Assembly (NCBI GenBank): GCA_018818205.1
Contig: JAHISJ010000013.1
Location: 16,661 to 80,660 of the forward strand
DNA length: 64,000 nt
DNA from: Patescibacteria group bacterium
GTDB lineage: Bacteria; Patescibacteriota; JABMPQ01; JAHIRA01
Direction: 5' to 3'
A program made the position numbers and the translations under genes. Positions 312-16,797 of the stretch are shown in pieces (positions within the stretch are counted from its first letter, which is position 1; every line of letters begins with the position of its first letter). The notes beneath the pieces are model-generated. The model had not been told where the DNA came from. It did no database searches and saw only the letters and a program-made list of their open reading frames with translations.

Positions 312-1790
312 ATGGAAAAAGTGTTATCCACATCAAAGTCTGTTTTTACCAAAGAGCGAGTTCTTTTGGGGCTCATATTTGTTTTTGGGGCGTTATATAC
401 TGCATCTGCCTATTTTAACCTACAAACAGAGCTTATTTTGCCGTTTGTGCTGCTTTTTTTGCTTATCTTTATTTTGCAGGGCTATTTTGCCGGATTTCTC
501 TCGATCATAGTATTAACTATGATTTTTGAGCACTTTTTTACCCTTGCGCCGCTCACTCTTTTTGGCTCAGAGTTTAAGATCTACGCGCTTGATTTCATTA
601 TCATTTTTTCAATAATCTCCTACTTTTTACACGAACGGATAAGAAATAAGAGAAGGATTACGTTTGGCAGCCTTAAAACACCCCTATTAATCTTTGCAGG
701 ACTTTGTCTTTTTTCTTTTATCTATGGTGTTTTGCGTGGAGGTGACGCTGCAGTTGCGTTTTCAAGCTTTAAAAACTATGCGCTGTACGCGGTTTTGTAT
801 ATTATGACCATCAATTTTGTTAACATTAAAGATAAATTAAGAGAGCTCATTAATACCATATTAGTAACAGGCCTTGGGCTTACTCTTTTTATTGTCGTGG
901 GGATTGTGCGTGGAGAAGGAATATGGGCCGAGTATAACATTCTCTCAACAGAAGGCGCGCGTCTTATTGCGGCAAGTCATGGGTTTTACCTGGGTATTGT
1001 CGTGCTTTTTGCGCTTCCACTTTACTTAAGTTCAAATATCATACTCAAGAAATGGGCGTTTCCGGTTATTGTTTTTCAAATCTTTGGTATTATTATTTCA
1101 CTTTCCAGGCATTTGTGGATTGGCCTAGCAGTCAGTCTCGCACTCATTTTTATACTTGTTCCAAGGATTCAAAAGAAAAAGATGCTTAAATCATTCGCGC
1201 TGTATGGCGGACTTTTTATAGCCGGACTTTCTGTATTAGTGTGGGGGTATGCTCTTGTAATCGGCAATGTTTCTGCACTCATTCCATCCGATTTTTTTGC
1301 AAATATTGCACAGAGGTTTTCGAGTATCAGCTTTATTAACGCGGATGATCCATCCGGTTTATGGCGACTCTTTTTGTGGCAAAAGTCTTTGGCGCTTCTT
1401 GCTCAAAGCCCGTTTATTGGCATTGGCTTTGGGTCTGCAGTGACGTTTGACTTCTTAGGGTACCCTATAGACGCGGAAGTGAGAAGCATGCACAATAGCT
1501 TTTTAGGTATTTTAGTACAGATGGGAGCTATTGGGCTTTTGGCTTTTTTAGCGCTTATCGCCAAAATTTTTTATGGGTTTGTACGAAATTTCAAACAGAT
1601 GTCGGGTATTTATAAAGCGATTGCGATTGGTGCCTTAGCCAATGTGATCTATTTTCTGATACTTGCTAATTTTGGCGTGTATTTTGAGTTGAACTCTCTT
1701 GTTGTTTTCTTTTGGATTTTGGTCGGTATTCTAGAAGTGAGTATTATTTTTTCTAAACGTGAGCATGAAAAAAGTAACCGTTTAAAGTAA
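312..1790 (+). CDS. O-antigen ligase / Wzy_C-family polytopic membrane protein
   Basis: About 10 predicted TM helices. Periplasmic loop with GIGFGS...HNSFLGILVQMGAIGL, matching the Wzy_C/WaaL signature. Confidence 0.65.
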   Translation: MEKVLSTSKSVFTKERVLLGLIFVFGALYTASAYFNLQTELILPFVLLFLLIFILQGYFAGFLSIIVLTMIFEHFFTLAPLTLFGSEFKIYALDFIIIFSIISYFLHERIRNKRRITFGSLKTPLLIFAGLCLFSFIYGVLRGGDAAVAFSSFKNYALYAVLYIMTINFVNIKDKLRELINTILVTGLGLTLFIVVGIVRGEGIWAEYNILSTEGARLIAASHGFYLGIVVLFALPLYLSSNIILKKWAFPVIVFQIFGIIISLSRHLWIGLAVSLALIFILVPRIQKKKMLKSFALYGGLFIAGLSVLVWGYALVIGNVSALIPSDFFANIAQRFSSISFINADDPSGLWRLFLWQKSLALLAQSPFIGIGFGSAVTFDFLGYPIDAEVRSMHNSFLGILVQMGAIGLLAFLALIAKIFYGFVRNFKQMSGIYKAIAIGALANVIYFLILANFGVYFELNSLVVFFWILVGILEVSIIFSKREHEKSNRLK

Positions 1791-1799
1791 TCAAATTAT

Positions 1800-2633
1800 A
1801 TGAAGAAATATTCATTTGTGATTTTGACCTACAATTCAGAGAAGACGATTAAAGACTGCATCCAGTCGGTAATTGATAAAACTACCGGCATTGAGCGTGA
1901 AATTATTGTAGTTGATAACGATTCCAAAGATGGGACAGTCGATTTTCTAAAGAAGGAGTTTGCTGGTTTGATCACCTTGATAGAAAATAAGAAGAATACA
2001 GGCTTTTCCGGCGGCATGAACGTAGGGCTAAAAAAAGCTACAGGTGATTACCTTATTATGCTCAACCCTGATGCGCATATAGAGAAAATTGACTTTGATA
2101 CGATAGAAAAACAGTTTAAAAAAGAGGGGATAGGGGTGATTGCGCCAAAAATTGTTTGGCCAGATGGAACACTCCAGCCTTCATTTGGGTTTTATCCAAC
2201 AAGACTCAGGCTTCTTTTACACTTTTCAAAACTACAAAGAGTGTTACCAAATGGGTTTTTAGTTTATAATAATAAGTGGAACAAGCATTTCTATAAAACT
2301 TTGAGTGATGTTGACTGGGCGTCGGGGTGTTCGCTTGTTATCCCTAAAACTGTTTTAGAGAAAATAGACTATTTTGATGAGAACTTCTTCTTGTATGTTG
2401 AGGACGTTGATCTCTGTAAACGGATTAAAGATGAAGGGTACTCGATCATTGTTGACCCATCTATTGTTATCTCTCACATTCTGCAAGCGAGTGTAAAAGA
2501 AGACTTAGGCAAAAACCTCGACTTTCAAAAAGAGAGCTTTGAGTATTTCTTTAAGAAACATTACAATAAGAATATTAAGGGTTTAATGACGGCGATATAT
2601 GCGTTGATTAAGCGCAAACTGCCGAAGAAGTAA
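1800..2633 (+). CDS. glycosyltransferase family 2
   Basis: N-terminal VILTYNSEKT...VVDNDSKDGT, then GFSGGMNVG and NPDA motifs; paralogous to 25340 and 50702. Confidence 0.8.
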   Translation: MKKYSFVILTYNSEKTIKDCIQSVIDKTTGIEREIIVVDNDSKDGTVDFLKKEFAGLITLIENKKNTGFSGGMNVGLKKATGDYLIMLNPDAHIEKIDFDTIEKQFKKEGIGVIAPKIVWPDGTLQPSFGFYPTRLRLLLHFSKLQRVLPNGFLVYNNKWNKHFYKTLSDVDWASGCSLVIPKTVLEKIDYFDENFFLYVEDVDLCKRIKDEGYSIIVDPSIVISHILQASVKEDLGKNLDFQKESFEYFFKKHYNKNIKGLMTAIYALIKRKLPKK

Positions 2634-2670
2634 GTTTTAAAAATTGTACGCCTTGTTCCTCCCCCTATAA

Positions 2671-2694
2671 CCCTCCCCTTAGTAAAAGGGAGGG
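2671..2694 (+). terminator. GC-rich hairpin (7-bp stem ccctccc/gggaggg) followed by a short T-run, between two GT genes; possible weak terminator or attenuator
   Basis: Direct inspection; the pyrimidine tract ccttgttcctccccctataaccctcccc is unusual for this AT-rich sequence. Confidence 0.3.
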
Positions 2695-2724
2695 GACACC
2701 TTTTACTCACAATCTTAAACACAT

Positions 2725-3972
2725 ATGAAGGTTCTGCACGCAAACAAATTCTACTACCTCCAAGGAGGTACTGAGCGATACTTCATTGAGACAATGGAGC
2801 TTTTGGAAAAGGAAAAAATCCAGTGTGTACCGTTTGCTATGCATCATCCAAAAAACTTAGAAACACCTTATAGCAAGTATTTTGTTAGTAATGTCGATTT
2901 TTCTAAAGTATCGTTTTCTAAAGAGGGGTTTAGGGTTGCTGGACGAATGCTCTACTCATTTGAGGCAAAGAAAAAGGTAGAAAAGCTCATAGAGGATGAA
3001 AAACCGGATATTGCGCATATCCACAACATTTATCATCAGATTTCACCATCGATTCTACCTGTTTTTAAAAATAACAACATTCCCGTTGTAATGTCTGTGC
3101 AGGACCATAAAATTATCTGTCCTGACTTTTTACTCTGTACCAATCATCCTAAACTCAGATATTGTCAAGACTGTAAACGGCATAAATATTACAAGGCGAT
3201 CCAGAATAAGTGTATCAAGGAATCATATATGGCAAGTACGCTTACGGCGCTTGAGATGTCGTTTCACAAGCTGGTGGGATACTATGAACGGTTTGTTGAT
3301 ACCTATATAGCTCCCAGCAATTTTGTCAAAGAACTTCTTATTGAGTGGGGGTATCCAGAAAAGAAAATCGTTACTATTCCGCTTTACGTTAAACATGACG
3401 AGCGTCCATACTCGTTTATGTATGATTCACAGAACCCCTATATTATCTACTGGGGACGCCATTCAAAAGAAAAGGGTGTCAGGTATTTAGTTGCGGCAAT
3501 GGAGAAGCTGCCTCACGTAAAGTGTATTATCTGTGGAACCGGTCCCGAGCATGAAGAGCTTAAACAAATTGCGAAAGACAAGAAGATTGATAACGTGGTG
3601 TTTTTAGGCTTTGTTCCTGACGAGGACTTAACACGAATTGCGCGGGATGCTCAGTTTGTCATTGTGCCATCAGTGTTTCCAGAAAACTTTGGACTGGTAG
3701 TAACAGAGGGGTTTGCGTTTGGAAAGCCGGTTATTGGGCCAAAGAGGGGAGCGCCTACTGAGCTTATTGATGTTGATAGAAATGGTCTCCTTTTTGAGGC
3801 ACAGAATGCAACTGACCTTGCAGAAAAGATTGATTCTTTGTGGAATAAAAAGGATAAGATTTCAGAAATGGGCAAAGAGGCAAGACGTGATGCAGAAACA
3901 CTCTATGATCCAAAATTACATATTGAAAGACTTATAACTACATACAACACTGTTCTTAAAAAAAATAAATAA
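2725..3972 (+). CDS. glycosyltransferase family 4 (GT-B, retaining type)
   Basis: EX7E motif PENFGLVVTEGFAFGKPVIG in the C-terminal half. Confidence 0.8.
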   Translation: MKVLHANKFYYLQGGTERYFIETMELLEKEKIQCVPFAMHHPKNLETPYSKYFVSNVDFSKVSFSKEGFRVAGRMLYSFEAKKKVEKLIEDEKPDIAHIHNIYHQISPSILPVFKNNNIPVVMSVQDHKIICPDFLLCTNHPKLRYCQDCKRHKYYKAIQNKCIKESYMASTLTALEMSFHKLVGYYERFVDTYIAPSNFVKELLIEWGYPEKKIVTIPLYVKHDERPYSFMYDSQNPYIIYWGRHSKEKGVRYLVAAMEKLPHVKCIICGTGPEHEELKQIAKDKKIDNVVFLGFVPDEDLTRIARDAQFVIVPSVFPENFGLVVTEGFAFGKPVIGPKRGAPTELIDVDRNGLLFEAQNATDLAEKIDSLWNKKDKISEMGKEARRDAETLYDPKLHIERLITTYNTVLKKNK

Positions 3973-3975
3973 TTC

Positions 3976-5235
3976 ATGAGAAAACGTGCGCTTGATTTTT
4001 ATGCGTGTCCGGCGTGTAAGACGTTTCCACTGTTTCTTTCACATGATAGAGATGAGGTGATATTCAATAATCTCTTAGATGTCGCGGCAGAAACATATCA
4101 ATGCAAGCAGTATTGTAGCCGTAATCGTCGGATGGTAAATAGCCAGGACGATGCATATGCACTCGGATGTAAGAAATGCCATGAAGAGCAGGTTAAAACA
4201 GCAACGCTTACCTGCAAAAAATGTGGCTATGTTTTTTGTATAGAAAACTTTCTTCCAAACTTTAGACTAGATCATGCTAAAAAGCATAGCAGCGATCATT
4301 GCGAGTCACTGGGGAAAGGCGTTGTTCAGAAGCATGAATCGTTTTATACAAGGGCAGAGCAGGAAAAGGAACTGTATAGAAGAGTTAAAGCACTTTTACC
4401 TTTTAGCAGAGCAAAAAAACCTCGAGCAAAAAAGAATATGGAGGACGATCTTGAGTATCGGTCTAAATATCCTGAGAAAGATAAATATATTCCGGTTTTT
4501 GAGGAATATCTGTCAAAAAAACCTGTATACACTCTAGAGCTCGGTATTGGTCAAGGTGGGTTTACCTCGAGCGTTAAGAAGTTTTTTAAACCTGCAGTGT
4601 CATTTGGCCTAGACTATGAGCCTAAATGGGCAGAGATTGCGTGGATTCGTGATCCGGAAACAGAAGTGCTTACAGCAGACGCGCGTAAACTTCCCTTTAG
4701 AGATAGTTCAATCGATTTAGTATTTTCTGCATATACACTTGAACACATTGTAAACGTTGATCCAGTCATTCATGAAACAGCGCGTGTTGCTGATGAAGCA
4801 TTTTTAGTATTTGGCCCCAGCAAATGGTCTCTTTACGACGTTCATTTTGAAAAGGCGCCGCTTGTGCCACTCTTACCTGCGTTTTTAGCAAAGCGTCTTG
4901 CGTACTTGTGGAAGGTTAAGAAGGTTGGATTTAATTATGCACAGGGTGAAATATTTGATGAGTATGCTACAATGAACTACATACGACCGTCCTACTTTGA
5001 GAGACTTGCTCACAAGGCTGGTTTTAAACCTGTTCCGTTACTAAAAGAACAGCTTACTGAGTCGTTTAAGGAGGCGTATCAGTACCATTCAATTATGAAG
5101 GTTGTACAGAAGTTTGGCTTTATAGTACTTCCCATTGTTTCTTTGGTGGAGAAGATGAAGCTACAACCGTTTATGGTCTACTTTTTAAAAAAAGAAAAAG
5201 CAACGATAGTTGAAAAAAAGAAAGCAAAAAAGTAA
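3976..5235 (+). CDS. Trm112-like zinc-ribbon fused to a class I SAM-dependent methyltransferase
   Basis: N-terminal FYACPACK...LTCKKCGYVFCIENFLPNF matches the Trm112 CPxC...CxxC...IP pattern. Methyltransferase motif I LELGIGQGGF and motif II DLVFSAYTLEHI follow. Confidence 0.6.
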   Translation: MRKRALDFYACPACKTFPLFLSHDRDEVIFNNLLDVAAETYQCKQYCSRNRRMVNSQDDAYALGCKKCHEEQVKTATLTCKKCGYVFCIENFLPNFRLDHAKKHSSDHCESLGKGVVQKHESFYTRAEQEKELYRRVKALLPFSRAKKPRAKKNMEDDLEYRSKYPEKDKYIPVFEEYLSKKPVYTLELGIGQGGFTSSVKKFFKPAVSFGLDYEPKWAEIAWIRDPETEVLTADARKLPFRDSSIDLVFSAYTLEHIVNVDPVIHETARVADEAFLVFGPSKWSLYDVHFEKAPLVPLLPAFLAKRLAYLWKVKKVGFNYAQGEIFDEYATMNYIRPSYFERLAHKAGFKPVPLLKEQLTESFKEAYQYHSIMKVVQKFGFIVLPIVSLVEKMKLQPFMVYFLKKEKATIVEKKKAKK

Positions 5236-5242
5236 TATACAT

Positions 5243-5581
5243 ATGTCAAAGGACATTGACATGAAAAATGAGTACGAAGATGAATCGGATGACAGTTATG
5301 AATACGATGATTATGATGAGGATGAGATAAACGAGTTCTTGGAGAACGAAGAGGAGGAGGGGAAGTCTTTTGATGTAGTAAGAGCTGAAGTTCACGAGGT
5401 ACTTGCTCGCTATTTTGAAAAGAACGAAGTTCCCTTTGCTTGGGAGGCAAAGATTTTGCTAGATAATGTTGCTCAGGCTATTCACGATCAATTTGCGACA
5501 CATGAAGAAGATATTACCAAGTTGTACGAGGAGGTAGATCGGTTGAAGATGAGGGATAGAGAGAAGGATTCTAGGAAATAG
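5243..5581 (+). CDS. hypothetical highly acidic protein (DE-rich N-terminus)
   Basis: ORF with start moved to 5243 to avoid overlap with the upstream gene. Followed by a strong intrinsic terminator. Confidence 0.45.
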   Translation: MSKDIDMKNEYEDESDDSYEYDDYDEDEINEFLENEEEEGKSFDVVRAEVHEVLARYFEKNEVPFAWEAKILLDNVAQAIHDQFATHEEDITKLYEEVDRLKMRDREKDSRK

Positions 5582-5602
5582 GGCTATATTTTGGCTAAGT
5601 TT

Positions 5603-5638
5603 AAAAATACGATCGAATGATCGTATTTTTTTTGTTTG
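5603..5638. terminator. bidirectional rho-independent terminator (8-bp stem atacgatc/gatcgtat, loop gaat, A-run before and T-run after)
   Basis: Hairpin 5607-5626 flanked by aaaa and ttttttttt; lies between convergent genes. Confidence 0.6.
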
Positions 5639-5646
5639 TATTTTAT

Positions 5647-5755
5647 ATGTCATCCCGGACAGTTTTTCCGAAAACTGATCCGGGATCTCGTTGAGTGCAG
5701 CATTAGAAACGAGATCCCGGATATCCACTTAAGAAAGTGAATTCCGAGATGACAT
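5647..5755. repeat. structured palindromic element (closing stem atgtcatc/gatgacat enclosing three hairpins); its core is about 85% identical to the perfect palindrome at 62541-62588
   Basis: Core gtcatcccggacagtttttccgaaaactgatccgggat compared with gtcatcccggatcagtctttccgaagactgatccgggat. Second hairpin gggatctcgtt/aacgagatccc (11 bp). Confidence 0.5.
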
Positions 5756-5805
5756 AAAAAAGGGGAGCGGGCAGTATTACCTATCTCCTCGAACATAAAA
5801 AAGTC

Positions 5806-8800
5806 TTATCTATCTCCCGCAACATCAATGCCACCACGATGTTCTTTAGCAAATGCATAGAAGTTGACCGCAATTGCTTTACCGTTTGCTTCAAATGCAC
5901 GAACTTGTGGGGTACCGCCATTCCCAGCACCGGTAATGACTTCGTCAATGCCATTATTATCAAGATCAGCAGTAGTAACGTGTGCCCCGACGGGGAAGTT
6001 ACCATATGCTTTCCATTCACCCACAACTGTTTTTTGGTTGTTATATCTATACACTTTTACCCACGCATGCGCGTGACCGGATTGTGCGGCGACAATCTCA
6101 TCCTTGCCGTCACCATCAGCGTCGCCTGCAGCAACGGAGATACCGTCTCTATATAATGGATGAAAGGCAAAGAATTGCATGGGGCGCCTGATCCCATTTC
6201 CTTCGTATACTCTAATTAATGGTCCGCCGCCTTTTCCTGCACCTACAATAATCTCATCTTGTCCATCGTTATCAATATCGCCAGCGGCAACATCTGCACC
6301 ACATTGCACTTTTCCAAAAACGTTGAAGTTTGCTAGTACCGTTTTATTTGTGTCTGCTTTATACACTTTTACCCATGCTTCTCCGTCTGATTTTTGTGAG
6401 ACAATAATTTCTGCTTTTCCATCACCATCTACATCACCACCGGCAACGTCAACGCCCCCTCTAAAGTTTGGATGAAAGGGGAAGAAGTTCATTATTTCTT
6501 TTCCTTCATGATCAAAAACACGAACATGCGGCCCACCTCCCGGACCTGCGCCAGTTATAATGTCTTTGTGACCATCTCCGTTTACGTCCGCATAGGCAAC
6601 CGAGACGCCTCCTCTAAAGTTTTTATTATATGCCAAGAAACTTAGGTTAGTAGGAACACCAGATTTATCAAAGGTTTTAACATGCGGATTGCCTCCGGAA
6701 AGCGCTGAAGTGACTATTTTTGTTTCTCTGTCTTTAGCTTTCCTTGGCGGATCTTCAGTAATATCGGTTGTTTTTGGTGCAAATAGTGATTGAGATTGCT
6801 CATTTGAGGGTTCTTCATTTTGTGGTTCATTTTGTGGTTCATTTTGTGGAACTGAAGGCGTTGTTGGATTCGGTTCAGCTAGTGTGGGTATGGGTTCTGT
6901 ATCGGGTGTTTCTTCAGGGGTTAGAGTAATATCAAGTTCAAGTATCGTTACTGAATGAGGGGGAAACGAGTAAGAAAATAGTGGCCCGACATTACTGATT
7001 GAACTTTGCTTGATGGTAACATCGATATAGTTTTCATTGTTTGCCCCAAGAGCATATCCATCTAAAGTATATACTTTTGCTGAAGACCCAGGTGCCGCAT
7101 TCTTGATTTTAATTGAGGTCTGCATTGATGCAAGCTCATGCTTGTTGATACCTGCAATGTACAGTTTCTTGTCACTGGCGTCGCGTGATGCGTAAGAAGT
7201 AAAGTAAGGGGCATCTGAAAGCCCAGGAAGAGAGTCAAGTTCATCCACCGAGTAAACAGGTACGTCAAACAAGTTAACCGGAAGCATAATATCACCAAAG
7301 TGTTCAGAGAAGAGAGATAATGCAAGTGCAGATGGCCGTGCGTTTAAATTATCTGTAAATGCGTGCCAATGTGAATCGCTACTACCGAGTGCATGAAACT
7401 GAGCACGCTCGACATCGTTTTTGGCAGCTTCTGCTAAAAGTTCTGACGTTGCAATACCAAATGCAAGACTCTTTCCTTTGTCTGAGTCGTGCGTGTTGAA
7501 TTCTGTGAGTAACACTTCTATTGATCCTGCTTTGCTGGGCGCATAGTGTCTTAACAAATCTCTCGTTTGCTCAACCTGTCCTTTTGATCCATTGTTGTAC
7601 GATGACTTAAAAGCATTTCCCCAAGAGTAGGGGCTTGCAAGGAGTTGTTGGTTAGATACGTGCGTACCGCCTTCTGTGGGCATGTAGTAGTGTAGAACGA
7701 TAAAGTCAAGATCGTGTGCCGCGGTTTGTAACACATCTCTATCCCAATCAGAAAAGCCAACAAGGAGCGACGCACCAACTTTTATTGTGGGATCGACTGC
7801 TTTCATGGCTTTGGCATATTCTTTGATCTGTTCGCCGTACGTGGCTCCGGGCATGTGATTGTCGCCATATGCCCATATTTCGTTTCCAAGCTCAAAATAT
7901 TCTATGTTGAGCTTTTTGTTCTTATTTAAATCATAGACCAACTGTGCCGCATCTTCCGGTGTTCCCCGGAGATTAACGGTTACCTGTGGTTTGAGACTAG
8001 CATCCTTTGCTGTTTGTAGCTGGCCCTCAAAATCCATTACTTCCCATGGATTATTGGATGAGAAGGGGTGTGGATATGCGCTTTGCCACATAAACCTATA
8101 CCCTGAAAGCGGATCTTTGTGCCTAAAAGCAATACCCATAAAGCCTCTTTCATATGCATGTGCAGCGGCACCACGGATGGTTGCTTTGACACTATAGTTT
8201 TTCCAGCCCTGCTCGCCAACTTTCTTAAGTGAGAGGCTTTGCTGGCCTACATGATGATACGCACCATCTTTGTGTTCCCAGGTTCCATTGTCAAACCATG
8301 AGGGGAATCCATCATTATTCCATGCAGGCGAAATGCCGGCATCAAAATTGTCCTCAAAGAGGGGATTTTCGTATTCGTCTAGGATTTGAACGTTATCAAA
8401 ATACACTTCTTGATTAAAACTTGAATATAATCCGACTTCCCCCTCTGAAAATGCGCTGTCGGTTATATCAAAGATTTGCTGTCCATCAATGTATAATCGG
8501 TAATTATTACCATGCACGACAATTTCAACGCTGTAGTTTTTATTATATTCATATGGGACATTGTCACTTGCGAGTACATTCCATACACCATTGTCTACTT
8601 TTGCTATAAAACGCTTACCGGGGTCGTATGGCGCTGCAAGGCGTATTGATTCAGCGGGATAGTCTCTTAGTGTGCTACTTAAATCAGCGTTATGTACAAA
8701 TTCTGAACTGACGCTGTATCCATAGAGATTGGGGTTGATGCTACTTGTTGCGTTTAAGGCATCTACAGTCATTTTGGGACTAAAACTCTGTCCGACGGAC

Positions 8801-8928
8801 TCAATAATAGTTGATATTACAACAAGAATCGCAATTAATGCGATTACCTTAGAAAATCTTACCACTTGAGAAAATAGAAACCGTGGTGTTTTGTTTGCTC
8901 TTTTTAGAAAAGAGGTTCTTCTCTTCAT
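5806..8928 (-). CDS. membrane-anchored multidomain surface protein: concanavalin/LamG-like lectin domains, clan GH-A glycoside hydrolase, Pro/Gln/Glu-rich linker, C-terminal FG-GAP/VCBS beta-propeller repeats
   Basis: N-terminal TM segment. ELGNE acid/base-like motif and LTEFN nucleophile-like motif. PQNEPQNEPQNE linker. At least 5 repeats of the type DxDGDGxxDIIxGAGxGGGPxVRVF. Confidence 0.75.
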   Translation of the reverse strand: MKRRTSFLKRANKTPRFLFSQVVRFSKVIALIAILVVISTIIESVGQSFSPKMTVDALNATSSINPNLYGYSVSSEFVHNADLSSTLRDYPAESIRLAAPYDPGKRFIAKVDNGVWNVLASDNVPYEYNKNYSVEIVVHGNNYRLYIDGQQIFDITDSAFSEGEVGLYSSFNQEVYFDNVQILDEYENPLFEDNFDAGISPAWNNDGFPSWFDNGTWEHKDGAYHHVGQQSLSLKKVGEQGWKNYSVKATIRGAAAHAYERGFMGIAFRHKDPLSGYRFMWQSAYPHPFSSNNPWEVMDFEGQLQTAKDASLKPQVTVNLRGTPEDAAQLVYDLNKNKKLNIEYFELGNEIWAYGDNHMPGATYGEQIKEYAKAMKAVDPTIKVGASLLVGFSDWDRDVLQTAAHDLDFIVLHYYMPTEGGTHVSNQQLLASPYSWGNAFKSSYNNGSKGQVEQTRDLLRHYAPSKAGSIEVLLTEFNTHDSDKGKSLAFGIATSELLAEAAKNDVERAQFHALGSSDSHWHAFTDNLNARPSALALSLFSEHFGDIMLPVNLFDVPVYSVDELDSLPGLSDAPYFTSYASRDASDKKLYIAGINKHELASMQTSIKIKNAAPGSSAKVYTLDGYALGANNENYIDVTIKQSSISNVGPLFSYSFPPHSVTILELDITLTPEETPDTEPIPTLAEPNPTTPSVPQNEPQNEPQNEEPSNEQSQSLFAPKTTDITEDPPRKAKDRETKIVTSALSGGNPHVKTFDKSGVPTNLSFLAYNKNFRGGVSVAYADVNGDGHKDIITGAGPGGGPHVRVFDHEGKEIMNFFPFHPNFRGGVDVAGGDVDGDGKAEIIVSQKSDGEAWVKVYKADTNKTVLANFNVFGKVQCGADVAAGDIDNDGQDEIIVGAGKGGGPLIRVYEGNGIRRPMQFFAFHPLYRDGISVAAGDADGDGKDEIVAAQSGHAHAWVKVYRYNNQKTVVGEWKAYGNFPVGAHVTTADLDNNGIDEVITGAGNGGTPQVRAFEANGKAIAVNFYAFAKEHRGGIDVAGDR
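6814..6849. repeat. perfect 12-nt tandem repeat (ttcattttgtgg x3) encoding the PQNE repeats of the linker in the 5806-8928 gene
   Basis: Direct inspection; in-frame, so copy number can change by slippage without frameshift. Confidence 0.8.
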
Positions 8929-8956
8929 ATCTTCATACTATCAACTTGTAGTAAAT

Positions 8957-8985
8957 ACTATAGCATTTATTTTTGATGTTGTCAA
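8957..8985 (-). promoter_or_regulatory. sigma70-like promoter TTGACA-17-TATAGT for the 5806-8928 gene
   Basis: Reverse complement gives ttgaca (8980-8985), 17-nt spacer, tatagt (8957-8962); about 25 nt upstream of the start codon. Confidence 0.45.
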
Positions 8986-9045
8986 GAGATTTGGGCTAGA
9001 AATAGAGATTTTCGGTGTATTGTGTATACTCTCCTTCCAAAACCC

Positions 9046-9074
9046 TTGACAAATTTTCTTTCGTATGCTAGTGT
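9046..9074 (+). promoter_or_regulatory. sigma70-like promoter TTGACA-17-TAGTGT for the GT4 gene at 9133
   Basis: ttgaca 9046-9051; -10 tagtgt 9069-9074. Confidence 0.4.
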
Positions 9075-9076
9075 GA

Positions 9077-9116
9077 AACGTTATCAAATTCAACCAAAAC
9101 GATAACACATAACGTT
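9077..9116 (+). promoter_or_regulatory. nested inverted repeat (aacgttat ... ataacgtt with inner gttatc/gataac) in the 5' leader of the 9133 gene; possible operator or RNA hairpin
   Basis: Perfect 8-bp arms 22 nt apart, immediately downstream of the predicted -10. Confidence 0.3.
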
Positions 9117-9132
9117 ACTTCTAACCGATTTT

Positions 9133-10290
9133 ATGAAGATAGCATTCATCGGACAAAAAGGACTTCCTGCCAAGCAGGGAGGAGTAGAAAAGCATGTTCA
9201 TGAGCTTGCAGTTAGACTTGCAAACAACGGACATGATGTTTTTGCGTATTCCAGAAAGAGCTATACTAATACTGATAATACTACATTTCAAGGAGTAACA
9301 CTCAAATATCTTCCGTCAATTGCGACAAAAAACTTTGATGCTATTTCCCATTCATTACTTGCAGCACTTGATGTGCTTAGACAAGATTATGATATTGTTC
9401 ACTTCCACGGTGTTGGTCCATCACTTGTTTCTTTTATTCCAAGACTTCTTAAAAGACGAACCAAAGTTGTTGCAACATTTCATTGTCGTGATCAGTTTCA
9501 TCAGAAATGGGGCATGATTGCGAGGGCATTTCTTTCTTTTGGTGAGTATGCTATTAATAAGTTCCCACATAAAACTATAGCTGTCTCTAAGATTCTACGT
9601 CAGTACTGCAGTGAAAAGTATGGAAGTGAAGCAGCATATGTCCCCAATGGATGTGCAATTACTGATACTGACAAGGCGTCAATGCTTCCTCTCTTTAATA
9701 TTAAGAAAGGTAAGTATATTCTTGCCGTATCAAGACTCGTGAAGCATAAAGGTTTGCATTATTTGATTGATGCGTTTAAAGAGCTAAACGATCCTGAACT
9801 CAAATTGGTGATTGTTGGTGATACCAGTTATACTGACGAATATGTCTCACTACTTAAAGAGCGTGCTCAAGGTGATAATCGTATCGTTTTTGCTGGTCTT
9901 CAGACCGGTGAGGCGCTTGCACAACTCTTTAAGAATGCACGTTTGTACGTGCATCCATCTGAGGCAGAAGGTCTTCCTATCACTGTACTTGAAGCACTCA
10001 AATACGGTATTCCATCAATTGTCAGTAATATTCCTGAAAATATTGAGGCTTCTGGTGGCTACATCTATGTCTTTAAAAATAAAGAGCCCTTAGATCTTGC
10101 AAAGAAGATGAAGCTTGTCTTGGATCATCCAAACGAGGTTTCCGAGCTTGCAAAGGCCGGTCAAAAGTATGTCTCAATTACGTATGATTGGGACAGGATT
10201 ACTGAAACTATTGAGTCGATTTATGAAGACTTACTTGAGGATGTCCGTGAAGACGTAGCTTACGAGCGAGAAGTTCCTTTGGTAAGATAA
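9133..10290 (+). CDS. glycosyltransferase family 4
   Basis: C-terminal SEAEGLPITVLEALKYGIP (EX7E); N-terminal Rossmann-like MKIAFIG...GGVE. Confidence 0.8.
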   Translation: MKIAFIGQKGLPAKQGGVEKHVHELAVRLANNGHDVFAYSRKSYTNTDNTTFQGVTLKYLPSIATKNFDAISHSLLAALDVLRQDYDIVHFHGVGPSLVSFIPRLLKRRTKVVATFHCRDQFHQKWGMIARAFLSFGEYAINKFPHKTIAVSKILRQYCSEKYGSEAAYVPNGCAITDTDKASMLPLFNIKKGKYILAVSRLVKHKGLHYLIDAFKELNDPELKLVIVGDTSYTDEYVSLLKERAQGDNRIVFAGLQTGEALAQLFKNARLYVHPSEAEGLPITVLEALKYGIPSIVSNIPENIEASGGYIYVFKNKEPLDLAKKMKLVLDHPNEVSELAKAGQKYVSITYDWDRITETIESIYEDLLEDVREDVAYEREVPLVR

Positions 10291-10432: not shown

Positions 10433-10960
10433 ATGATTGATGGTGTTAAAATAAAACAAATGAAGGTCTGGGAGGATATTCCTGATACTCCAGAAGAAGA
10501 GAATCAAAAGAAAGGGTTTCTCATGGAGGTCTTGAGGTCAGACGAGGACCTACTCAAGAAGTATGGACAAACAACGTTTACTGTTGCATACAAGGACACT
10601 ATAAAAGCATTCCATTGGCATAAAAAGCAAGATGATTTGTGGTTCATTGGCAGCGGTAAAGCAGTGATCGTACTTCATGACATGCGTGAAGAGTCACCGA
10701 CATTTGGAGAAACGCAGGAAATTTTTGCAGGAGAAGGGGACTATAAGCTTGTTTTGATTCCCGTTGGGGTTGCTCACGGATATAAAGCACTGAGCGAAGA
10801 ACCGGTTCTTCTTTTTTATCACACAACAGAAGCCTACAATCCAGAAAATCCCGACGAAGAACGAATCCCCTACAATGATCCAAAAATTGACTATGACTGG
10901 AAACAGGACTTTGGAGCTAAGGAAGCAGAGGTTGCCCAGGTAGATGAAAAGGAGGCGTAA
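10433..10960 (+). CDS. rmlC: dTDP-4-dehydrorhamnose 3,5-epimerase (cupin)
   Basis: Matches RmlC motifs: FHWH..., MREESPTFGE, IPVGVAHGY. Confidence 0.7.
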   Translation: MIDGVKIKQMKVWEDIPDTPEEENQKKGFLMEVLRSDEDLLKKYGQTTFTVAYKDTIKAFHWHKKQDDLWFIGSGKAVIVLHDMREESPTFGETQEIFAGEGDYKLVLIPVGVAHGYKALSEEPVLLFYHTTEAYNPENPDEERIPYNDPKIDYDWKQDFGAKEAEVAQVDEKEA

Positions 10961-10968
10961 GGGAAAAC

Positions 10969-11376
10969 ATGGAAGACTGTATCTTTTGCAAAATTGTAAA
11001 CGGTGATGTGCTGTCATCAAAGATATACGAAGACGATGCGTTTCTTGCATTCCTAGACATTGCACCAGTGCATCCCGGACATATCCTAGTTATTCCAAAA
11101 GAACACTACCCGCTTCTTACCAACGTTCCCGAAGAAATCCTCCAGAAATATCTTATTGTAGTCCAAAAAGTATCTCGTGCGCTCGTTGATGGTTTGGAGC
11201 TTAACGGGTTTAACTTGGGAATGAATAATGGTTCTGTCGCAGGGCAGATTGTCCCTCATGTTCATTTTCATGTTATGCCACGCACAGAAGGCGATGGGCT
11301 GAAGCTTTGGTCGCAGCGCAGTTATGCAGAAGGGGAGGCAGATGAGGTGGCAGGGAAGATTAAAGATGCGTTGTAG
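10969..11376 (+). CDS. HIT-family (histidine triad) nucleotide hydrolase/transferase
   Basis: CIFCKI..., canonical HVHFHVMPR histidine triad. Confidence 0.8.
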   Translation: MEDCIFCKIVNGDVLSSKIYEDDAFLAFLDIAPVHPGHILVIPKEHYPLLTNVPEEILQKYLIVVQKVSRALVDGLELNGFNLGMNNGSVAGQIVPHVHFHVMPRTEGDGLKLWSQRSYAEGEADEVAGKIKDAL

Positions 11377-11437
11377 TATCAGTCTTTCTAAGGTTATACT
11401 CGAAGGTTGTTAGTAAAAATTAATTTAAGTAGGTAGT

Positions 11438-12451
11438 ATGAAAATACTTGTCACAGGAGGTTTGGGATTCATTGGGAGTAACTTTGTCAGGTATGTTCTA
11501 AAAAAGTATCCTGAGTACGAAGTAGTTAATCTAGATAAGATGACGTATGCAGGGAATCCAGAGAATCTCAGGGATATTGAGGAGGATGCTCGCTATCATT
11601 TTTATAAGGGGGATATTTGTGATAGTGCTATTGTAGATACTATTTTCTCTGATCATGCTATAGACGCAATTATAAATTTTGCTGCGGAGTCACATGTTGA
11701 CAGGTCCATTGAAGATCCCGGTGCATTTATTCAAACGGATGTGTATGGCACGTTTGTTTTGCTTGAAGCAGTAAAGAAACATGGTGTTAAGCGGTACATT
11801 CAAATTAGCACGGACGAGGTGTATGGCGATTTTGATGACGGGGGATTTGCAACAGAGGAGTCGTCACTTGAACCATCAAGCCCCTACTCTGCTTCAAAAA
11901 CAGGAGGTGATTTACAGGTTATTGCTGCACGTAGAACGTACGATCTTCCCGTAATGATTACGCGGTGTACCAATAATTATGGGCCATACATGTATCCAGA
12001 AAAGCTCATTCCCCTATTTGTCACTAATTTGATTGAAGGGAAGAAGGTGCCGGTGTATGGTGCAGGTGATCAAATACGGGATTGGCTCTACGTTGATGAT
12101 CATTGTAGTGCTATAGATCTTGTACTTCACAAAGGTGAGTTGGGAGAGATTTACAATGTAGCTGCAAATCAAGACCCTGAAGTCACCAATCTGGAGCTCA
12201 CTAAAAGAATCCTTGAAGTGCTAAAGATGGGGGAAGAGATGATTGAGTATGTTAAAGATCGCCCCGGACATGATAAGCGCTATGCTGTTGATTGCAGCAA
12301 GATTAAGTTACTAGGATGGAAGGTTGAGACACCTCTTAAGGAAGGACTAGAAAAAACAGTACAGTGGTATGTTGACCATGAAGATTGGTGGAAGAAGATT
12401 AAGACAGGAGAGTATTTAGAATTTTATAAGAGACAGTACGAAGAACGTTAA
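11438..12451 (+). CDS. rmlB: dTDP-glucose 4,6-dehydratase
   Basis: [22 protein letters not shown], extended SDR with RmlB-type length and motifs. Confidence 0.9.
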   Translation: MKILVTGGLGFIGSNFVRYVLKKYPEYEVVNLDKMTYAGNPENLRDIEEDARYHFYKGDICDSAIVDTIFSDHAIDAIINFAAESHVDRSIEDPGAFIQTDVYGTFVLLEAVKKHGVKRYIQISTDEVYGDFDDGGFATEESSLEPSSPYSASKTGGDLQVIAARRTYDLPVMITRCTNNYGPYMYPEKLIPLFVTNLIEGKKVPVYGAGDQIRDWLYVDDHCSAIDLVLHKGELGEIYNVAANQDPEVTNLELTKRILEVLKMGEEMIEYVKDRPGHDKRYAVDCSKIKLLGWKVETPLKEGLEKTVQWYVDHEDWWKKIKTGEYLEFYKRQYEER

Positions 12452-12487
12452 TCGTGCGCTGTTAACGTGATGGTAAGATAATATACT

Positions 12488-13360
12488 ATGCGAAAAAACA
12501 CTCAAATAGCAAAAAAGATAGCTATTACCGGATCAGAGGGTATGCTCGGCCATGATCTAAAAAAGGTTTTTGGGAGCGATAAAAAGTATGCACTTGTTTT
12601 GTATACAAAAAAAACTCTCGATATCACTGACGAAAAAAAAGTCCTTCAAAAATTAGAAAAAGATAAACCTGATATTATAATTAACGCTGCAGCGTTTACT
12701 GCGGTTGACGATTGTGAGGATAAAAAGCACAAAAAAGCATGTATTGCAGTAAACGGTGTGGGTCCAAAAAATGTTGCAAAAGCGGCAAAGAAGATTGGCG
12801 CGATTCTTGTCCAGATAAGTACTGATTATGTCTTTGATGGAAAGAAAAAAAGTGGGTATACTGAAAGATCGCGAGTGGGTCCTATTAATACGTATGGAAA
12901 GTCAAAGCTTATGGGTGAAGAAACGGTTAAAAAAGAGTGCACTAAGTTTTATATTGTGCGCACATCATGGCTTTTTGGCAAGAATGGACCTAATTTTGTT
13001 GAGACCATGCTTATGCTTGGCAAAAAACATCCAGAGCTTAAAGTGGTGCATGATCAGCATGGTAAACCAACGTGGACGTATGATTTAGCTTTGCATATCA
13101 AGAAACTTCTTGAGCGAAATAAAGCATTTGGAGTGTATCACTGTACCAATGAAGGTGAAACAACATGGTATAATTTTACCCGAGAGATTTTGAAACAAGC
13201 AAAGATTAAAACGCCGGTAAAGCCGTGTACATCTGAAGAGTTTCCACGGCCTGCAAAACGTCCCGAGTATTCCACGCTACTCAATACCAAGTTTTCGCGA
13301 ATGCCACATTGGAAAAAGGCGCTTACAGGATATTTAAAGGATCGAAAGAAGAAAGCATAA
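12488..13360 (+). CDS. rmlD: dTDP-4-dehydrorhamnose reductase
   Basis: IAITGSEGMLGHDL, YGKSK, RTSWLFG; RmlD-typical architecture of about 290 aa. Confidence 0.85.
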   Translation: MRKNTQIAKKIAITGSEGMLGHDLKKVFGSDKKYALVLYTKKTLDITDEKKVLQKLEKDKPDIIINAAAFTAVDDCEDKKHKKACIAVNGVGPKNVAKAAKKIGAILVQISTDYVFDGKKKSGYTERSRVGPINTYGKSKLMGEETVKKECTKFYIVRTSWLFGKNGPNFVETMLMLGKKHPELKVVHDQHGKPTWTYDLALHIKKLLERNKAFGVYHCTNEGETTWYNFTREILKQAKIKTPVKPCTSEEFPRPAKRPEYSTLLNTKFSRMPHWKKALTGYLKDRKKKA

Positions 13361-13384
13361 ATAATAACGATTAAGTCAACAACT

Positions 13385-14458
13385 ATGAAGGCACTCATTG
13401 CTGCAGGTGGACATGGGACGAGGCTCCGTCCGATCACCTTCACCTTAAACAAGCATCTTATCCCTATCGCAAACAAGCCGATGATTTTTCATGCGCTTGA
13501 TAAAATGGCAGAAGCGGGGATAAAAGAGGTTGGAATTAATGTAAATCCTGGAGACACCTCAATTAGCAAGGCATGTGGAAATGGTGAGGACTTTGGGCTT
13601 AATATTACGTATATCGAGCAATCCGGAGGTCCGCTTGGACTCGCTCATATTATAAAAAATGCTGAATCTTTTATTGGAGATGAAGATTTTATATTCTATT
13701 TAGGTGACAATATTATCCTTGGTAGCATTAAACCGTTTATTAAGAAGTTTAAGGATGAGAAGGCGGACTGTTTACTTGCGCTTTCTAGGGTAGAAGATCC
13801 TGAACGATTTGGTGTGCCGGATATTGATGAAAAGGGGAATATTATTGGCGTTGAAGAAAAGCCAAAACGACCTAAAAGTCCCTATGCAGTCACCGGTATT
13901 TATATCTACAACAAAAGCATTTTTGATGCAGTCAAAAAGCTAAAGCCTAGTGCGCGAGGAGAGCTTGAGATTTCTGATGCGCACCAGTATTTGATTGATC
14001 ATGGTTACAAAGTTACTTTTGTTGAGATTACCGGCTGGTGGAAGGATACCGGGAAGCCGGATGACTTGATTCAAGGAAATCAGCTGCTTCTAAACGATAT
14101 TACTTCTACGCAAGAAGGTGCGATAGTTGACGAGCATGTCCAGATTCAAGGGAAGGTGAGTATTGCAAAAGGAGCAAAGATTTTAGGACGAAGCTATATT
14201 AGAGGACCGGTCATGATTGGTCCGTGTGCGGTCATTAGAGATAGCTATATCGGTCCTTTTACTTCTGTTGGTGGTAGAGTAGAGATTTCTGGAGGAGAAA
14301 TAGAAAATTCTATCGTTTTTGATGACGCTGATATTAGTTGTAAAAGAAAAATAGTTGATAGTCTTCTTGGAAAGAACTGTACTATCACAGATGCACACGC
14401 GACATTACCGTCCGGGAATAGACTGATTGTTGGAGAAAATTCAATCGTTGAACTCTAA
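13385..14458 (+). CDS. rmlA: glucose-1-phosphate thymidylyltransferase, long form with C-terminal left-handed beta-helix
   Basis: MKALIAAGGHGTRLRPIT nucleotidyltransferase motif; hexapeptide repeats in the C-terminus. Confidence 0.8.
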   Translation: MKALIAAGGHGTRLRPITFTLNKHLIPIANKPMIFHALDKMAEAGIKEVGINVNPGDTSISKACGNGEDFGLNITYIEQSGGPLGLAHIIKNAESFIGDEDFIFYLGDNIILGSIKPFIKKFKDEKADCLLALSRVEDPERFGVPDIDEKGNIIGVEEKPKRPKSPYAVTGIYIYNKSIFDAVKKLKPSARGELEISDAHQYLIDHGYKVTFVEITGWWKDTGKPDDLIQGNQLLLNDITSTQEGAIVDEHVQIQGKVSIAKGAKILGRSYIRGPVMIGPCAVIRDSYIGPFTSVGGRVEISGGEIENSIVFDDADISCKRKIVDSLLGKNCTITDAHATLPSGNRLIVGENSIVEL

Positions 14459-14474
14459 AGATAACGAGCAGCAC

Positions 14475-15990: not shown

Positions 15991-16797
15991 ATGACTAAAA
16001 AAATACAGGTTCAAGGTGTTGAAATTTCTATCATTTCTAAAAATGAAGATGATTTTATATCTTTAACCAATATGTTAAAAGCAAAAGATGGTGATTTTTA
16101 TATTTCAGATTGGTTAAGAAATAGAAATACGGTTGAATTTCTTGGTGTTTGGGAAAAAATAAATAATCCCAATTTTAATTATGGCGAGTTCGCCATAATT
16201 AAAAGTAAGGCAGGCTTAAATAGTTATAAAATAAGTGTTAAGGAATGGGTTAAAAAGACTCATGCTATTGGGTTACGATCAGTGGCTGGTCGATACGGCG
16301 GAACATATGCTCACAAAGATATTGCTTTTGAATTTGGAATGTGGATTAGCCCAGAATTTAAAATCTATCTTATCAAAGAGTTCCAAAGACTTAAAGAAGA
16401 AGAAAATGAACGTTTATTCCTTGGTTGGGATGCGAAACGAACACTAACAAAAATAAATTATAAAATTCACACAGACGCTATAAAGAAACATATTATTCCA
16501 ACTTTAGTTACCAAGAAACAAATAGATTTTGTTTACGCGAATGAAGCAGATGTCCTGAATGTCGCTCTTTTTGGAATGACCGCAAAAGAATGGACGGATA
16601 AAAACGTGAAACTAAAAGGAAATATGCGAGATTATGCTAATGTTGTACAATTAGTGTGTTTAGCGAATTTAGAGAGTATGAATGCGGAATTTATCAGACA
16701 AGAGCTTTCGCAATCAGAGAGATTGCAAAGACTAAATAAAATCGCGCTTGTTCAGATGAAGTCTCTTGCTAAAAGTGAAAGTATTAAGAAATTTTAA
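15991..16797 (+). CDS. KilA-N domain-containing protein (phage/mobile-element-associated DNA-binding family)
   Basis: KIQVQGVEISIISKNEDDFISLTNM...FYISDWLRNRNTVEFLGVWE...YGGTYAHKDIAFEFGMWISPEFKIYLIKEFQRLK matches the conserved bacterial KilA-N family. The gene is markedly more AT-rich than its neighbours. Confidence 0.6.
   Translation: MTKKIQVQGVEISIISKNEDDFISLTNMLKAKDGDFYISDWLRNRNTVEFLGVWEKINNPNFNYGEFAIIKSKAGLNSYKISVKEWVKKTHAIGLRSVAGRYGGTYAHKDIAFEFGMWISPEFKIYLIKEFQRLKEEENERLFLGWDAKRTLTKINYKIHTDAIKKHIIPTLVTKKQIDFVYANEADVLNVALFGMTAKEWTDKNVKLKGNMRDYANVVQLVCLANLESMNAEFIRQELSQSERLQRLNKIALVQMKSLAKSESIKKF

Follow-up and report, generated by a model that had tools for sequence, protein, structure and literature searches.

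A GH51-like hydrolase with an inserted, circularly permuted lectin-type module, encoded beside a rhamnose glycan cluster in a Patescibacteria bacterium

Which glycan does a large, apparently exported glycosidase act on when its gene lies among genes for making a surface polysaccharide? The locus that raises this question is in a 64,000-nt stretch of a Patescibacteria group bacterium (contig JAHISJ010000013.1 of assembly GCA_018818205.1, positions 16,661 to 80,660), and this whole stretch is called the window here. Positions 5806-8928 of the window encode a 1040-residue protein, which a first-pass annotation had described as a surface glycosidase of glycoside hydrolase (GH) clan GH-A that might trim or remodel the envelope polysaccharide or attack host or prey glycans. 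The answer that we favor, and that we rate at slightly better than even, is that the protein is an extracytoplasmic GH51-like hydrolase that trims the cell's own rhamnose-containing surface polysaccharide, edits its chain length or releases it, as PslG, BcsZ and comparable hydrolases encoded in such clusters do.

The open reading frame (ORF) was found as annotated, on the minus strand and with an ATG start, and an identical protein is encoded on the contigs ENA ERZ27247128 k141_365028 and Logan SRR6514274. The domain reading of the first-pass annotation largely proved correct. The parts of the gene and protein are listed below, with the basis of each assignment in brackets.

5806..8928, minus strand: coding sequence of the 1040-residue protein, ATG start, stop codon 5806-5808 (ORF listing).
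8791..8928, minus strand: residues 1-46, basic N-terminal tail and hydrophobic segment (~26-46) (Kyte-Doolittle).
8620..8790, minus strand: residues 47-103, an N-terminal strand contributed to the C-terminal sandwich, followed by beta1-alpha1-beta2 (LYGYS...; ...SIRLA) (secondary structure of the AlphaFold2, AF2, model).
8362..8619, minus strand: residues 104-189, 'A half' of the inserted concanavalin A (ConA)-like beta-sandwich, the counterpart of the canonical DUF1080/CBM66-type module's C-terminal half (Pfam, CBM66, BLAST).
8065..8361, minus strand: residues 190-288, 'B half', the counterpart of the canonical module's N-terminal half; its end, YRFMWQ..., enters alpha2 (BLAST, Pfam).
7294..8064, minus strand: residues 289-545, alpha2-alpha8 of the GH51-like barrel, with the catalytic machinery (phmmer/hmmsearch, AF2, Foldseek).
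7879..7881, minus strand: codon of E350 (LGNE), predicted general acid/base at the end of beta4 (HMMER alignment, invariance).
7501..7503, minus strand: codon of E476 (LLTEFN), predicted nucleophile at the end of beta7 (invariance, model position).
6925..7293, minus strand: residues 546-668, C-terminal beta-sandwich typical of GH51, GH39, GH44 and GH79 (HMMER and model).
6718..6924, minus strand: residues 669-737, low-complexity linker rich in P/T/E/N/Q (family comparison; columns unalignable).
6814..6849, minus strand: perfect 12-nt x3 tandem repeat (coding strand CCACAAAATGAA), encoding PQNE x3 at residues 694-705 (Tandem Repeats Finder, TRF, score 72, 100% matches).
5809..6717, minus strand: residues 738-1040, six-bladed FG-GAP beta-propeller (Pfam, AF2 model, Foldseek).

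The N-terminus suggests that the enzyme works outside the cytoplasm. Kyte-Doolittle windows of 19 residues exceeded 1.6 solely at window starts 17-32, giving one hydrophobic segment, and directly after it the family alignment shows a conserved (D/E)S.G, with G46 nearly invariant. This arrangement, a basic tail and a single hydrophobic segment, is consistent with a signal anchor or a long signal peptide, and thus with anchoring or export. It fits the first-pass description of a surface glycosidase with several domains.

The catalytic part is a clan GH-A barrel whose nearest family is GH51, as judged from sequence matches and the predicted model. A phmmer search of the PDB with the single sequence matched the GH51 chain 3s2c (E 1.8e-16) and also 3ug3, and a family profile matched the GH51 Thermotoga arabinofuranosidases with an E value of 2.7e-32. 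The match falls in two stretches, residues 336-420, which include LGNE, and residues 515-667, the C-terminal beta-sandwich; there, query residues 515-667 aligned to 3s2c 328-483 and profile positions 530-665 to 345-483. The AF2 model of residues 45-680 (predicted local distance difference test, pLDDT, 91.6; predicted template modeling score, pTM, 0.89) has eight beta-alpha units. Its residues 8-54 are residues 52-98 of the protein and cover the start of the barrel, and its sandwich is built from the N-terminal strand 8-12 and an all-beta region at 503-625 (model numbering). The best Foldseek match to this model was again a GH51 enzyme, 3ug4 (E 3e-26; template modeling score, TM, 0.74-0.75), followed by GH44 and GH79, and all the top 50 matches were clan GH-A enzymes. 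The Pfam GH39 score was 15.9 bits against a cut-off of 26.

The active site that the first-pass annotation had recognized from its LGNE and TEFN motifs held up on closer examination. In the HMMER alignment E350 pairs with the Glu of the GNE motif in the Thermotoga GH51 chain (3s2c/3ug3), E172 as counted off that alignment, which is reportedly the acid/base of that enzyme in the 2012 structure papers. In the AF2 model E350 directly follows strand 300-303, which is beta4. E476 lies within model strand 427-435 and outside the HMMER alignments to PDB chains. Every one of the 21 family members (37-61% identity) has N349, E350, H413, Y415 and E476, and a MAFFT alignment shows the same five residues without exception in 16 distant GH51/GH39-like relatives, where E476 stands in (T/S)E(W/F/Y)N. 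The Glu pair, whose loss the first-pass annotation had named as grounds for rejection, is thus present throughout this set, and N349, E350, the HxY and E476 form the full clan GH-A signature at the sequence level. At the start of the barrel, G70, Y71 and S72 are invariant in the family alignment and R96 is nearly so.

The most unusual part of the protein is the ConA-like module. The first-pass annotation had spoken of concanavalin-like lectin modules; the fold was upheld by matches to PF06439 and to 4azz, but not the plural or the N-terminal placement, since there is one permuted module and it sits in the beta2-alpha2 loop of the barrel. In the AF2 model the elements follow each other as beta1, alpha1, beta2, 14 consecutive strands, alpha2, and beta3 onward, the 14-strand block covering 62-239 in the model and 106-283 in the protein. 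Against GH51, the Foldseek alignment spans 672 columns with 636 query and 484 target residues, leaving ~190 query residues unmatched, and the distant GH relatives align with residues ~300-665 only (among the matches listed, at no more than 32% identity). From the order of elements, the unmatched residues and relatives that align from ~300 on, we conclude that the module is an insertion in the beta2-alpha2 loop. Model pLDDT within the insert is mostly above 85 and falls to ~71 at the junction of the A and B halves.

The insert is circularly permuted, with the order of the two canonical halves reversed. PF06439 (DUF1080; cut-off 26.8 bits) scored a marginal 28.0 bits with the full protein, 32.2 with the excised insert and 37.4 with the permuted order. 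In native order, protein residues 108-182 matched profile positions 112-186, but once the halves were swapped in silico (190-290, then 100-189) the family matched in one stretch over profile positions ~3-187. The permuted order scored at least as high as the native one for the window protein and for eight of the nine homologues that match the family, the ninth being 1.6 bits lower, and 13 of 16 permuted family members match PF06439. The CBM66 structure 4azz, whose residues 89-161 match protein residues 108-182, was found with E values of 1.5e-7 (single sequence), 2.9e-10 (family profile) and 2.9e-11 (permuted profile). When the permuted family profile was searched against the PDB, the aligned region of CBM66 became no longer than before and the envelope alone grew, so the permutation was instead established through the paired Pfam tests and through P0207, a complete protein with canonical tandem units. 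The units of P0207 start at 133, 323 and 513 and have the order 'B half then A half'. With BLAST, the native insert gave two swapped high-scoring segment pairs (HSPs) against one such unit, insert 7-83 to unit 107-183 (E 2e-19, 44% identity) and insert 139-185 to unit 62-103 (E 2.7e-4); with the halves exchanged (B+A), a single collinear HSP ran across the artificial junction (E 3e-24). The hairpin in the middle of the canonical domain (…YRFSWD..RQ / YRRLVK…) is therefore opened and joined to alpha2 and beta2 of the barrel, and the canonical termini are linked through a short ILDEYENP segment. Two tandem lectin modules were also considered and are ruled out, as there are 14 strands in total and each half fits one half of a canonical unit.

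The insert is 30-44% identical to a module that recurs in tandem in hundreds of large proteins, as many as 14 times in a single protein of 3465 residues. The simplest origin would be an out-of-register unit from such a tandem array, made of the C-half of one repeat and the N-half of the next. In all, 1576 representative proteins match the ConA-like insert at E<=1e-3, and many of them are giant, such as P0198 (3465 residues, 14 stretches) and P0199 (3027 residues). The tandem-module relatives also include P0204 and P0212, and they share the core ...YYRFSWD..R.YRRLVK..G..TVLA.D.VPY....

The site of the insertion matters for what the enzyme may bind. In GH51 a mobile beta2-alpha2 loop (Trp99 in TxAbf) closes over and forms the -1 subsite for arabinofuranose (PMC4939007). 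This short mobile loop is absent from the AF2 model of the window protein, where a beta-sandwich of ~185 residues takes its place.

The C-terminal FG-GAP propeller with DxDxDG-type loops was also upheld, although not as 'integrin-alpha-like', a form with seven blades, because the model has six. Pfam found five repeats each of FG-GAP_3 (PF13517; E 4.5e-23, 82 bits) and FG-GAP (PF01839; E 1.6e-19, 70 bits), and the AF2 model of residues 725-1040 (pLDDT 93.7, pTM 0.92) contains 24 strands, which fits six four-stranded blades. Five blades, starting at ~782, 833, 885, 937 and 989, carry D-x-D/N-x-D/N-G-x-x-D/E loops between strands 1 and 2 (DVNGDGHKD, DVDGDGKAE, DIDNDGQDE, DADGDGKDE and DLDNNGIDE), whose D and G positions are invariant or nearly invariant in the family alignment. 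The sixth blade combines the C-terminal strand (IDVAG) with N-terminal strands in a 'velcro' closure. The best Foldseek matches were polysaccharide lyases of family PL11 including YesW (eight blades, solved with rhamnose), the head of integrin alpha-V (seven), NHL (six) and Bap1 of the Vibrio cholerae biofilm matrix (eight). The integrin alpha head, YesW and Bap1 resemble the window's propeller in their FG-GAP repeats and in having D-x-D-x-D-G calcium-type loops that connect strands 1 and 2 of a blade; they differ from its six blades and 24 strands. All TM values were at most 0.61 (at most 0.58 for integrin heads), so the propeller has no close relative in the PDB, and six-bladed FG-GAP propellers lack a near counterpart among solved structures. 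Two of the neighboring families act on or sit in polysaccharide matrices, and by analogy the propeller may bind glycan. A lysozyme inhibitor was rejected: PliI (PF16743, 20 bits) and XAC2610 (NF047539, 25.9 bits) scored below their cut-offs and overlap the FG-GAP repeats.

The family to which the protein belongs is real, conserved and narrow, with ~20 sequences of which all the named ones are from Patescibacteria/Parcubacteria. A search of 5.8 billion protein clusters returned 18 full-length homologues (41-60% identity, 980-1028 residues; one named Parcubacteria) and two homologues of ~692 residues (P0019 and P0020; the gene of this form is at 1722-3800 of locus L088) that stop just past the beta-sandwich, carry a short basic tail and have neither linker nor propeller, the propeller being dispensable in this lineage; the remaining matches covered a single domain only. 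An exhaustive HMMER search with residues 45-300 against 1.84 billion representatives found ~5 clusters at 50% identity that span the whole region (P0012, P0019, P0016, P0205 and P0222) and one fragment. Across the family alignment, the catalytic and lectin parts have a mean column identity of 59%. The next relatives of the window's S-adenosylmethionine synthetase are from Parcubacteria, Falkowbacteria and Magasanikbacteria, among others. No published description of the family was found in the literature on Parcubacteria FG-GAP proteins, on glycoside hydrolases and rhamnose in the candidate phyla radiation (CPR), or on Patescibacteria arabinofuranosidases.

If the domains suggest a glycan hydrolase, the neighbors suggest which glycan. 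The genes that flank the hydrolase gene are as follows (GT, glycosyltransferase).

312..5235, plus strand: Wzy_C-domain membrane protein (312-1790), GT2 (1800-2633), GT4 (2725-3972) and methyltransferase (3976-5235) (Pfam, NCBIfam).
9133..10290, plus strand: divergent GT4 glycosyltransferase with a faint DUF1972 match (NCBIfam NF046071).
10433..14458, plus strand: dTDP-L-rhamnose pathway, with RmlC-like protein (10433-10960), HIT protein (10969-11376), RmlB (11438-12451), RmlD (12488-13360) and RmlA-long (13385-14458) (NCBIfam).

RmlB, RmlD and RmlA scored above their cut-offs (TIGR01181, 467 bits; TIGR01214, 314 bits; TIGR01208, 416 bits), and RmlC, at 60 bits, scored below. The GT4 at 9133..10290 aligns over its full length with the beta-1,4-rhamnosyltransferase Cps2T (positions 4-384 of 384), at a below-cut-off score of 73.6 bits. 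The hydrolase gene is on the strand opposite to its glycan-cluster neighbors.

Related loci were L083-L088. Five of them (L083, L084, L085, L086 and L088; 40-60% protein identity) were inspected gene by gene, and L087 for repeat content only; L001 and L002 are the window's own strain and do not count as independent loci. GT4 genes flank the hydrolase gene in the window and in all five inspected loci, including L088, whose propeller-less lineage retains the same gene neighborhood. Wzy_C is visible in the window and in four of the five, short flanks in L086 and L088 possibly hiding parts of the cluster. Rml-type genes are present in the window and clear in L084 and L085, with one Rml-type epimerase in L083. 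Gene sets comparable to the 312..5235 flank were found in L083, L084, L085 and L088, and a DUF1972-type GT4 is the immediate upstream neighbor in the window, L084 and L088. In the window and the inspected loci the visible neighbors are all on the other strand from the hydrolase gene, apart from one same-strand upstream gene in L083. The placement beside a glycan locus that the first-pass annotation described is therefore a property of the family, and its retention at 40-60% identity argues for a functional tie to the product of the cluster. Between the two roles proposed at the outset, it favors trimming or remodeling of the envelope polysaccharide.

In L083 (a 1.05-Mb contig with homologue P0010) the DUF1972-type GT4, ~1.2 kb upstream, is split into two ORFs of 178 and 212 residues at 5616-6800, which may be a frameshift or a pseudogene.

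The hydrolase gene has putative transcription signals of its own, at the following positions.

8957..8985, minus strand: promoter-like site TTGACA-17 nt-TATAGT with an extended -10 TG (11 of 12 consensus matches, top site within 5200-9400).
5603..5630, no strand assigned: hairpin with a 12-bp stem (AAAAATACGATCGAATGATCGTATTTTT) and flanking A-run and T-run (terminator scan; between convergent genes).

The promoter-like site, sigma-70-like in its consensus, lies ~28 nt 5' of the ATG, within the 204 bp that separate the hydrolase gene from the divergent GT4 gene. It is a predicted promoter, found by consensus match, and it bears out as a sequence the 'own consensus promoter' of the first-pass annotation. 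The hairpin is likely to be a bidirectional intrinsic terminator that ends the hydrolase transcript. With both signals in place, the hydrolase gene looks monocistronic. A perfect 8-nt x2 repeat (TCTTCATA, plus strand) at 8922-8937 spans the start codon and yields an out-of-frame mini-ORF, ATG-AAG-ATA-TGA, that overlaps the ATG at 8928, and no obvious Shine-Dalgarno sequence was seen 5' of this start codon.

Put together, these observations suggest the following mechanism. The enzyme would stand outside the membrane, either anchored via its N-terminal hydrophobic segment or freed by cleavage of a signal peptide. Nascent or mature surface polysaccharide would be bound by the insert, which at its place in the beta2-alpha2 loop is most likely part of the substrate-binding surface and would set the polymer specificity. 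Where a propeller is present, joined to the enzyme by the disordered 69-residue linker, it would most likely bind polysaccharide or cell wall as well and so hold the enzyme on its target. Hydrolysis would proceed by double displacement with retention, with E476 as the nucleophile and E350 as the acid/base, at an equatorial linkage, probably of the beta-D- or alpha-L-furanosyl type. Cleavage would then control the chain length, release or remodeling of the glycan.

Several points weigh against this proposal. The activity, the substrate and the anomeric specificity are predictions from sequence and model, and the rhamnose content of the glycan is read from the Rml genes. E476 is predicted to be the GH51 nucleophile by its position and invariance rather than by direct alignment to a solved chain. 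Identity to characterized GH51 enzymes is ~16% in structural alignments, and the NCBIfam ArfA equivalog NF051901 reached 36 bits against a cut-off of 625; because of these values and the different subsite-forming loop, the label 'arabinofuranosidase' should not be transferred to the protein. That the propeller and the insert bind calcium and sugar is predicted from motifs and fold. Synteny is an association and does not in itself demonstrate action on the product of the cluster, and a gene that faces the other way and has a promoter-like site of its own may be regulated independently of that cluster. Finally, CPR bacteria live attached to hosts, which makes a host-directed role the first alternative to be weighed.

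In such a role, which we regard as possible yet clearly less probable than self-directed editing, the propeller would be an adhesin and the hydrolase would cut a host-surface glycan for attachment, penetration or nutrient release. The source organism is a Patescibacteria bacterium, and an account in PMC12206443 gives all cultivated Patescibacteria as obligate episymbionts. A predicted extracytoplasmic protein with an adhesin-type FG-GAP propeller would suit this way of life, as would a promoter-like site of its own on the strand opposite to the glycan cluster, and fast-evolving linkers are common among surface proteins under selection. However, a host-directed tool makes the conserved linkage with GT4, Wzy_C and Rml genes at 40-60% identity hard to explain. 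Different hosts are also expected to differ in their glycans, but the catalytic and lectin parts keep the 59% mean column identity given above, and the presumed adhesin is absent from P0019 and P0020.

We doubt more strongly that the protein serves nutrition, as an ordinary GH51 alpha-L-arabinofuranosidase acting extracellularly to debranch plant arabinan or arabinoxylan. Its top sequence and structure matches are indeed characterized GH51 arabinofuranosidases, and Pfam PF06964 (Alpha-L-AF_C) gave matches, weak ones only, in some homologues. Yet the loop that forms the -1 arabinose subsite (PMC4939007) is replaced by a 185-residue domain, the ArfA score is far under its cut-off, and an alignment of beta1 by eye suggests that the Glu of the GH51 'EH' motif is not conserved. 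The neighbors are biosynthetic, with no sugar-uptake or pentose-catabolism genes nearby, and the family is confined to few lineages of Patescibacteria with small genomes.

A further alternative concerns the linker rather than the enzyme. The first-pass annotation had noted a perfect 12-nt x3 repeat at 6814-6849, which TRF confirmed with 3.0 copies and 100% matches (residues 694-705, PQNEPQNEPQNE), and had taken linker length as probably hypervariable between cells or strains; a slippage-prone contingency element of this kind could tune the reach of the propeller or serve antigenic escape. The perfect 36-nt array is the strongest tandem repeat of the 64 kb, where two arrays score at least 50, and its perfection over 36 nt indicates that it is evolutionarily recent. 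Linker length ranges from 36 to 69 residues in the 19 full-length members, the 69 of the window protein being the longest, and composition differs by homologue (P/T/E here, N/D-rich or K-rich elsewhere). Weak repeats occur in or beside the linker in two of the five homologous genes checked, but the linkers of the other three have none. Simple-sequence contingency loci typically carry many more copies than three, and the PQNE unit, at three copies of 12 nt, is far below them; being in frame, it would not shift the frame or give on/off switching. The three gene-bearing assemblies each have three copies, but they are 99.995-100% identical (0-1 nt differences over 6.3-18.9 kb) and hence represent one strain. 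An exact-flank pattern with 1-6 repeat copies had no match in JGI metagenomes, a scan of those metagenomes for close relatives found no other strain, just one 60%-identical homologue, and the exact 1040-residue protein was absent from a table of 15 billion clustered proteins. The variation between homologues is divergence between species, which need not be driven by repeats, and hypervariability is unlikely to be the main story. The window's second tandem repeat is at 39371-39420 (15-nt unit x3.3, 75% matches; TTACTCTTTATTTTT). A TonB match in the linker was discarded as a proline-rich low-complexity artefact.

It is very improbable that the protein is a catalytically inactive scaffold or lectin that only binds glycans, because, although both its insert and its propeller are putative carbohydrate-binding modules and the GH51 gating loop has been lost, the NE, the HxY and the nucleophile E are invariant in 21 members at 37-61% identity.

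Some further observations concern the surroundings of the gene. A small, extremely acidic ORF (…EYEDESDDSYEYDDYDEDEINEFLENEEEE…) at 5210-5581 on the plus strand is convergent with the hydrolase gene and has no family match; small genes stand at the equivalent position in L001 (106 residues) and L084 (88 residues). At 15991-16797 on the plus strand, inside the glycan/rhamnose locus, is a KilA-N domain protein, a domain typical of DNA-binding proteins of phages or mobile elements, and it adjoins a protein of 465-481 residues with no family match (14427-15872). G+C content is ~0.38-0.44 over the glycan locus (1-24000) and 0.30-0.34 over most of 24000-64000; at 40-42 kb it rises locally to 0.41 and the GC skew is reversed. 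A search of the window against Rfam gave no RNA family.

Much of bacterial diversity belongs to the Patescibacteria (CPR), and we know of almost nothing on their envelope glycans or how these are remodeled. Since the family is narrow and strictly linked to a rhamnose/Wzy-type cluster, it marks that cluster and offers a tractable entry point; its ectodomain, made recombinantly, could serve to probe and cut the native surface polysaccharide and help to define it. The protein is also of interest to enzyme evolution and design, as a clear natural case of a carbohydrate-binding-type module placed, in permuted form, in the active-site gating loop of a GH51-type barrel. A bolder proposal, which we offer only tentatively, is that these proteins form a distinct, GH51-derived and Patescibacteria-specific (sub)family, in which the gating loop has given way to a permuted lectin module taken out of register from a tandem array, and that, with or without the six-bladed calcium-loop propeller, they are dedicated and essential editors of a rhamnose-containing glycan that shapes presentation to the host. 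A dedicated glycan editor would give a first handle on the structure and turnover of CPR surface glycans, and an example of specificity engineered via domain insertion at the -1 subsite.

There is ample precedent both for glycan hydrolases encoded in such clusters and for multidomain surface glycosidases. The protein resembles the Thermotoga GH51 enzymes (3ug3/3ug4, 3s2c, 4atw) in its barrel and C-terminal sandwich, the GNE on beta4, the HxY on beta6 and the Glu on beta7. Those enzymes are soluble and intracellular. Here, in contrast, there is a predicted N-terminal membrane or signal segment, a 185-residue permuted ConA-like domain in the beta2-alpha2 loop, a long linker and an FG-GAP propeller, and the genomic context is biosynthetic instead of catabolic. 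The likeness to PslG (GH39) lies in the clan GH-A barrel and sandwich, the N-terminal membrane segment, here a predicted one, and a gene inside a cluster for a rhamnose-containing surface polysaccharide; to our knowledge PslG has neither an inserted lectin domain nor a propeller. The present hydrolase is not GH39 (15.9 against 26 bits), and its gene is on the opposite strand with its own promoter-like site. Psl is described in PMC11912335 as a polymer of mannose, rhamnose and glucose, and recent accounts present PslG as an endo-beta-glucanase (PMC11912335, PMC9075953, PMC4928890). That hydrolases are encoded inside exopolysaccharide biosynthesis clusters is a general principle (PMC9075953), with PslG, BcsZ and PelA as examples. 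CBM66, the C-terminal domain of the Bacillus subtilis levanase SacC (4azz), and PF06439 (DUF1080/3-keto-disaccharide hydrolase) share with the insert an all-beta module at significant similarity, but the module here is permuted and inserted in a catalytic barrel, not appended. All the building blocks and the logic of a hydrolase in a polysaccharide cluster were thus already known, and no general principle is changed. What is new is the permuted DUF1080/CBM66-type module in the beta2-alpha2 gating loop of a GH51-like barrel, together with the six-bladed FG-GAP propeller and a family limited to few Patescibacteria lineages with strict linkage to the cluster.

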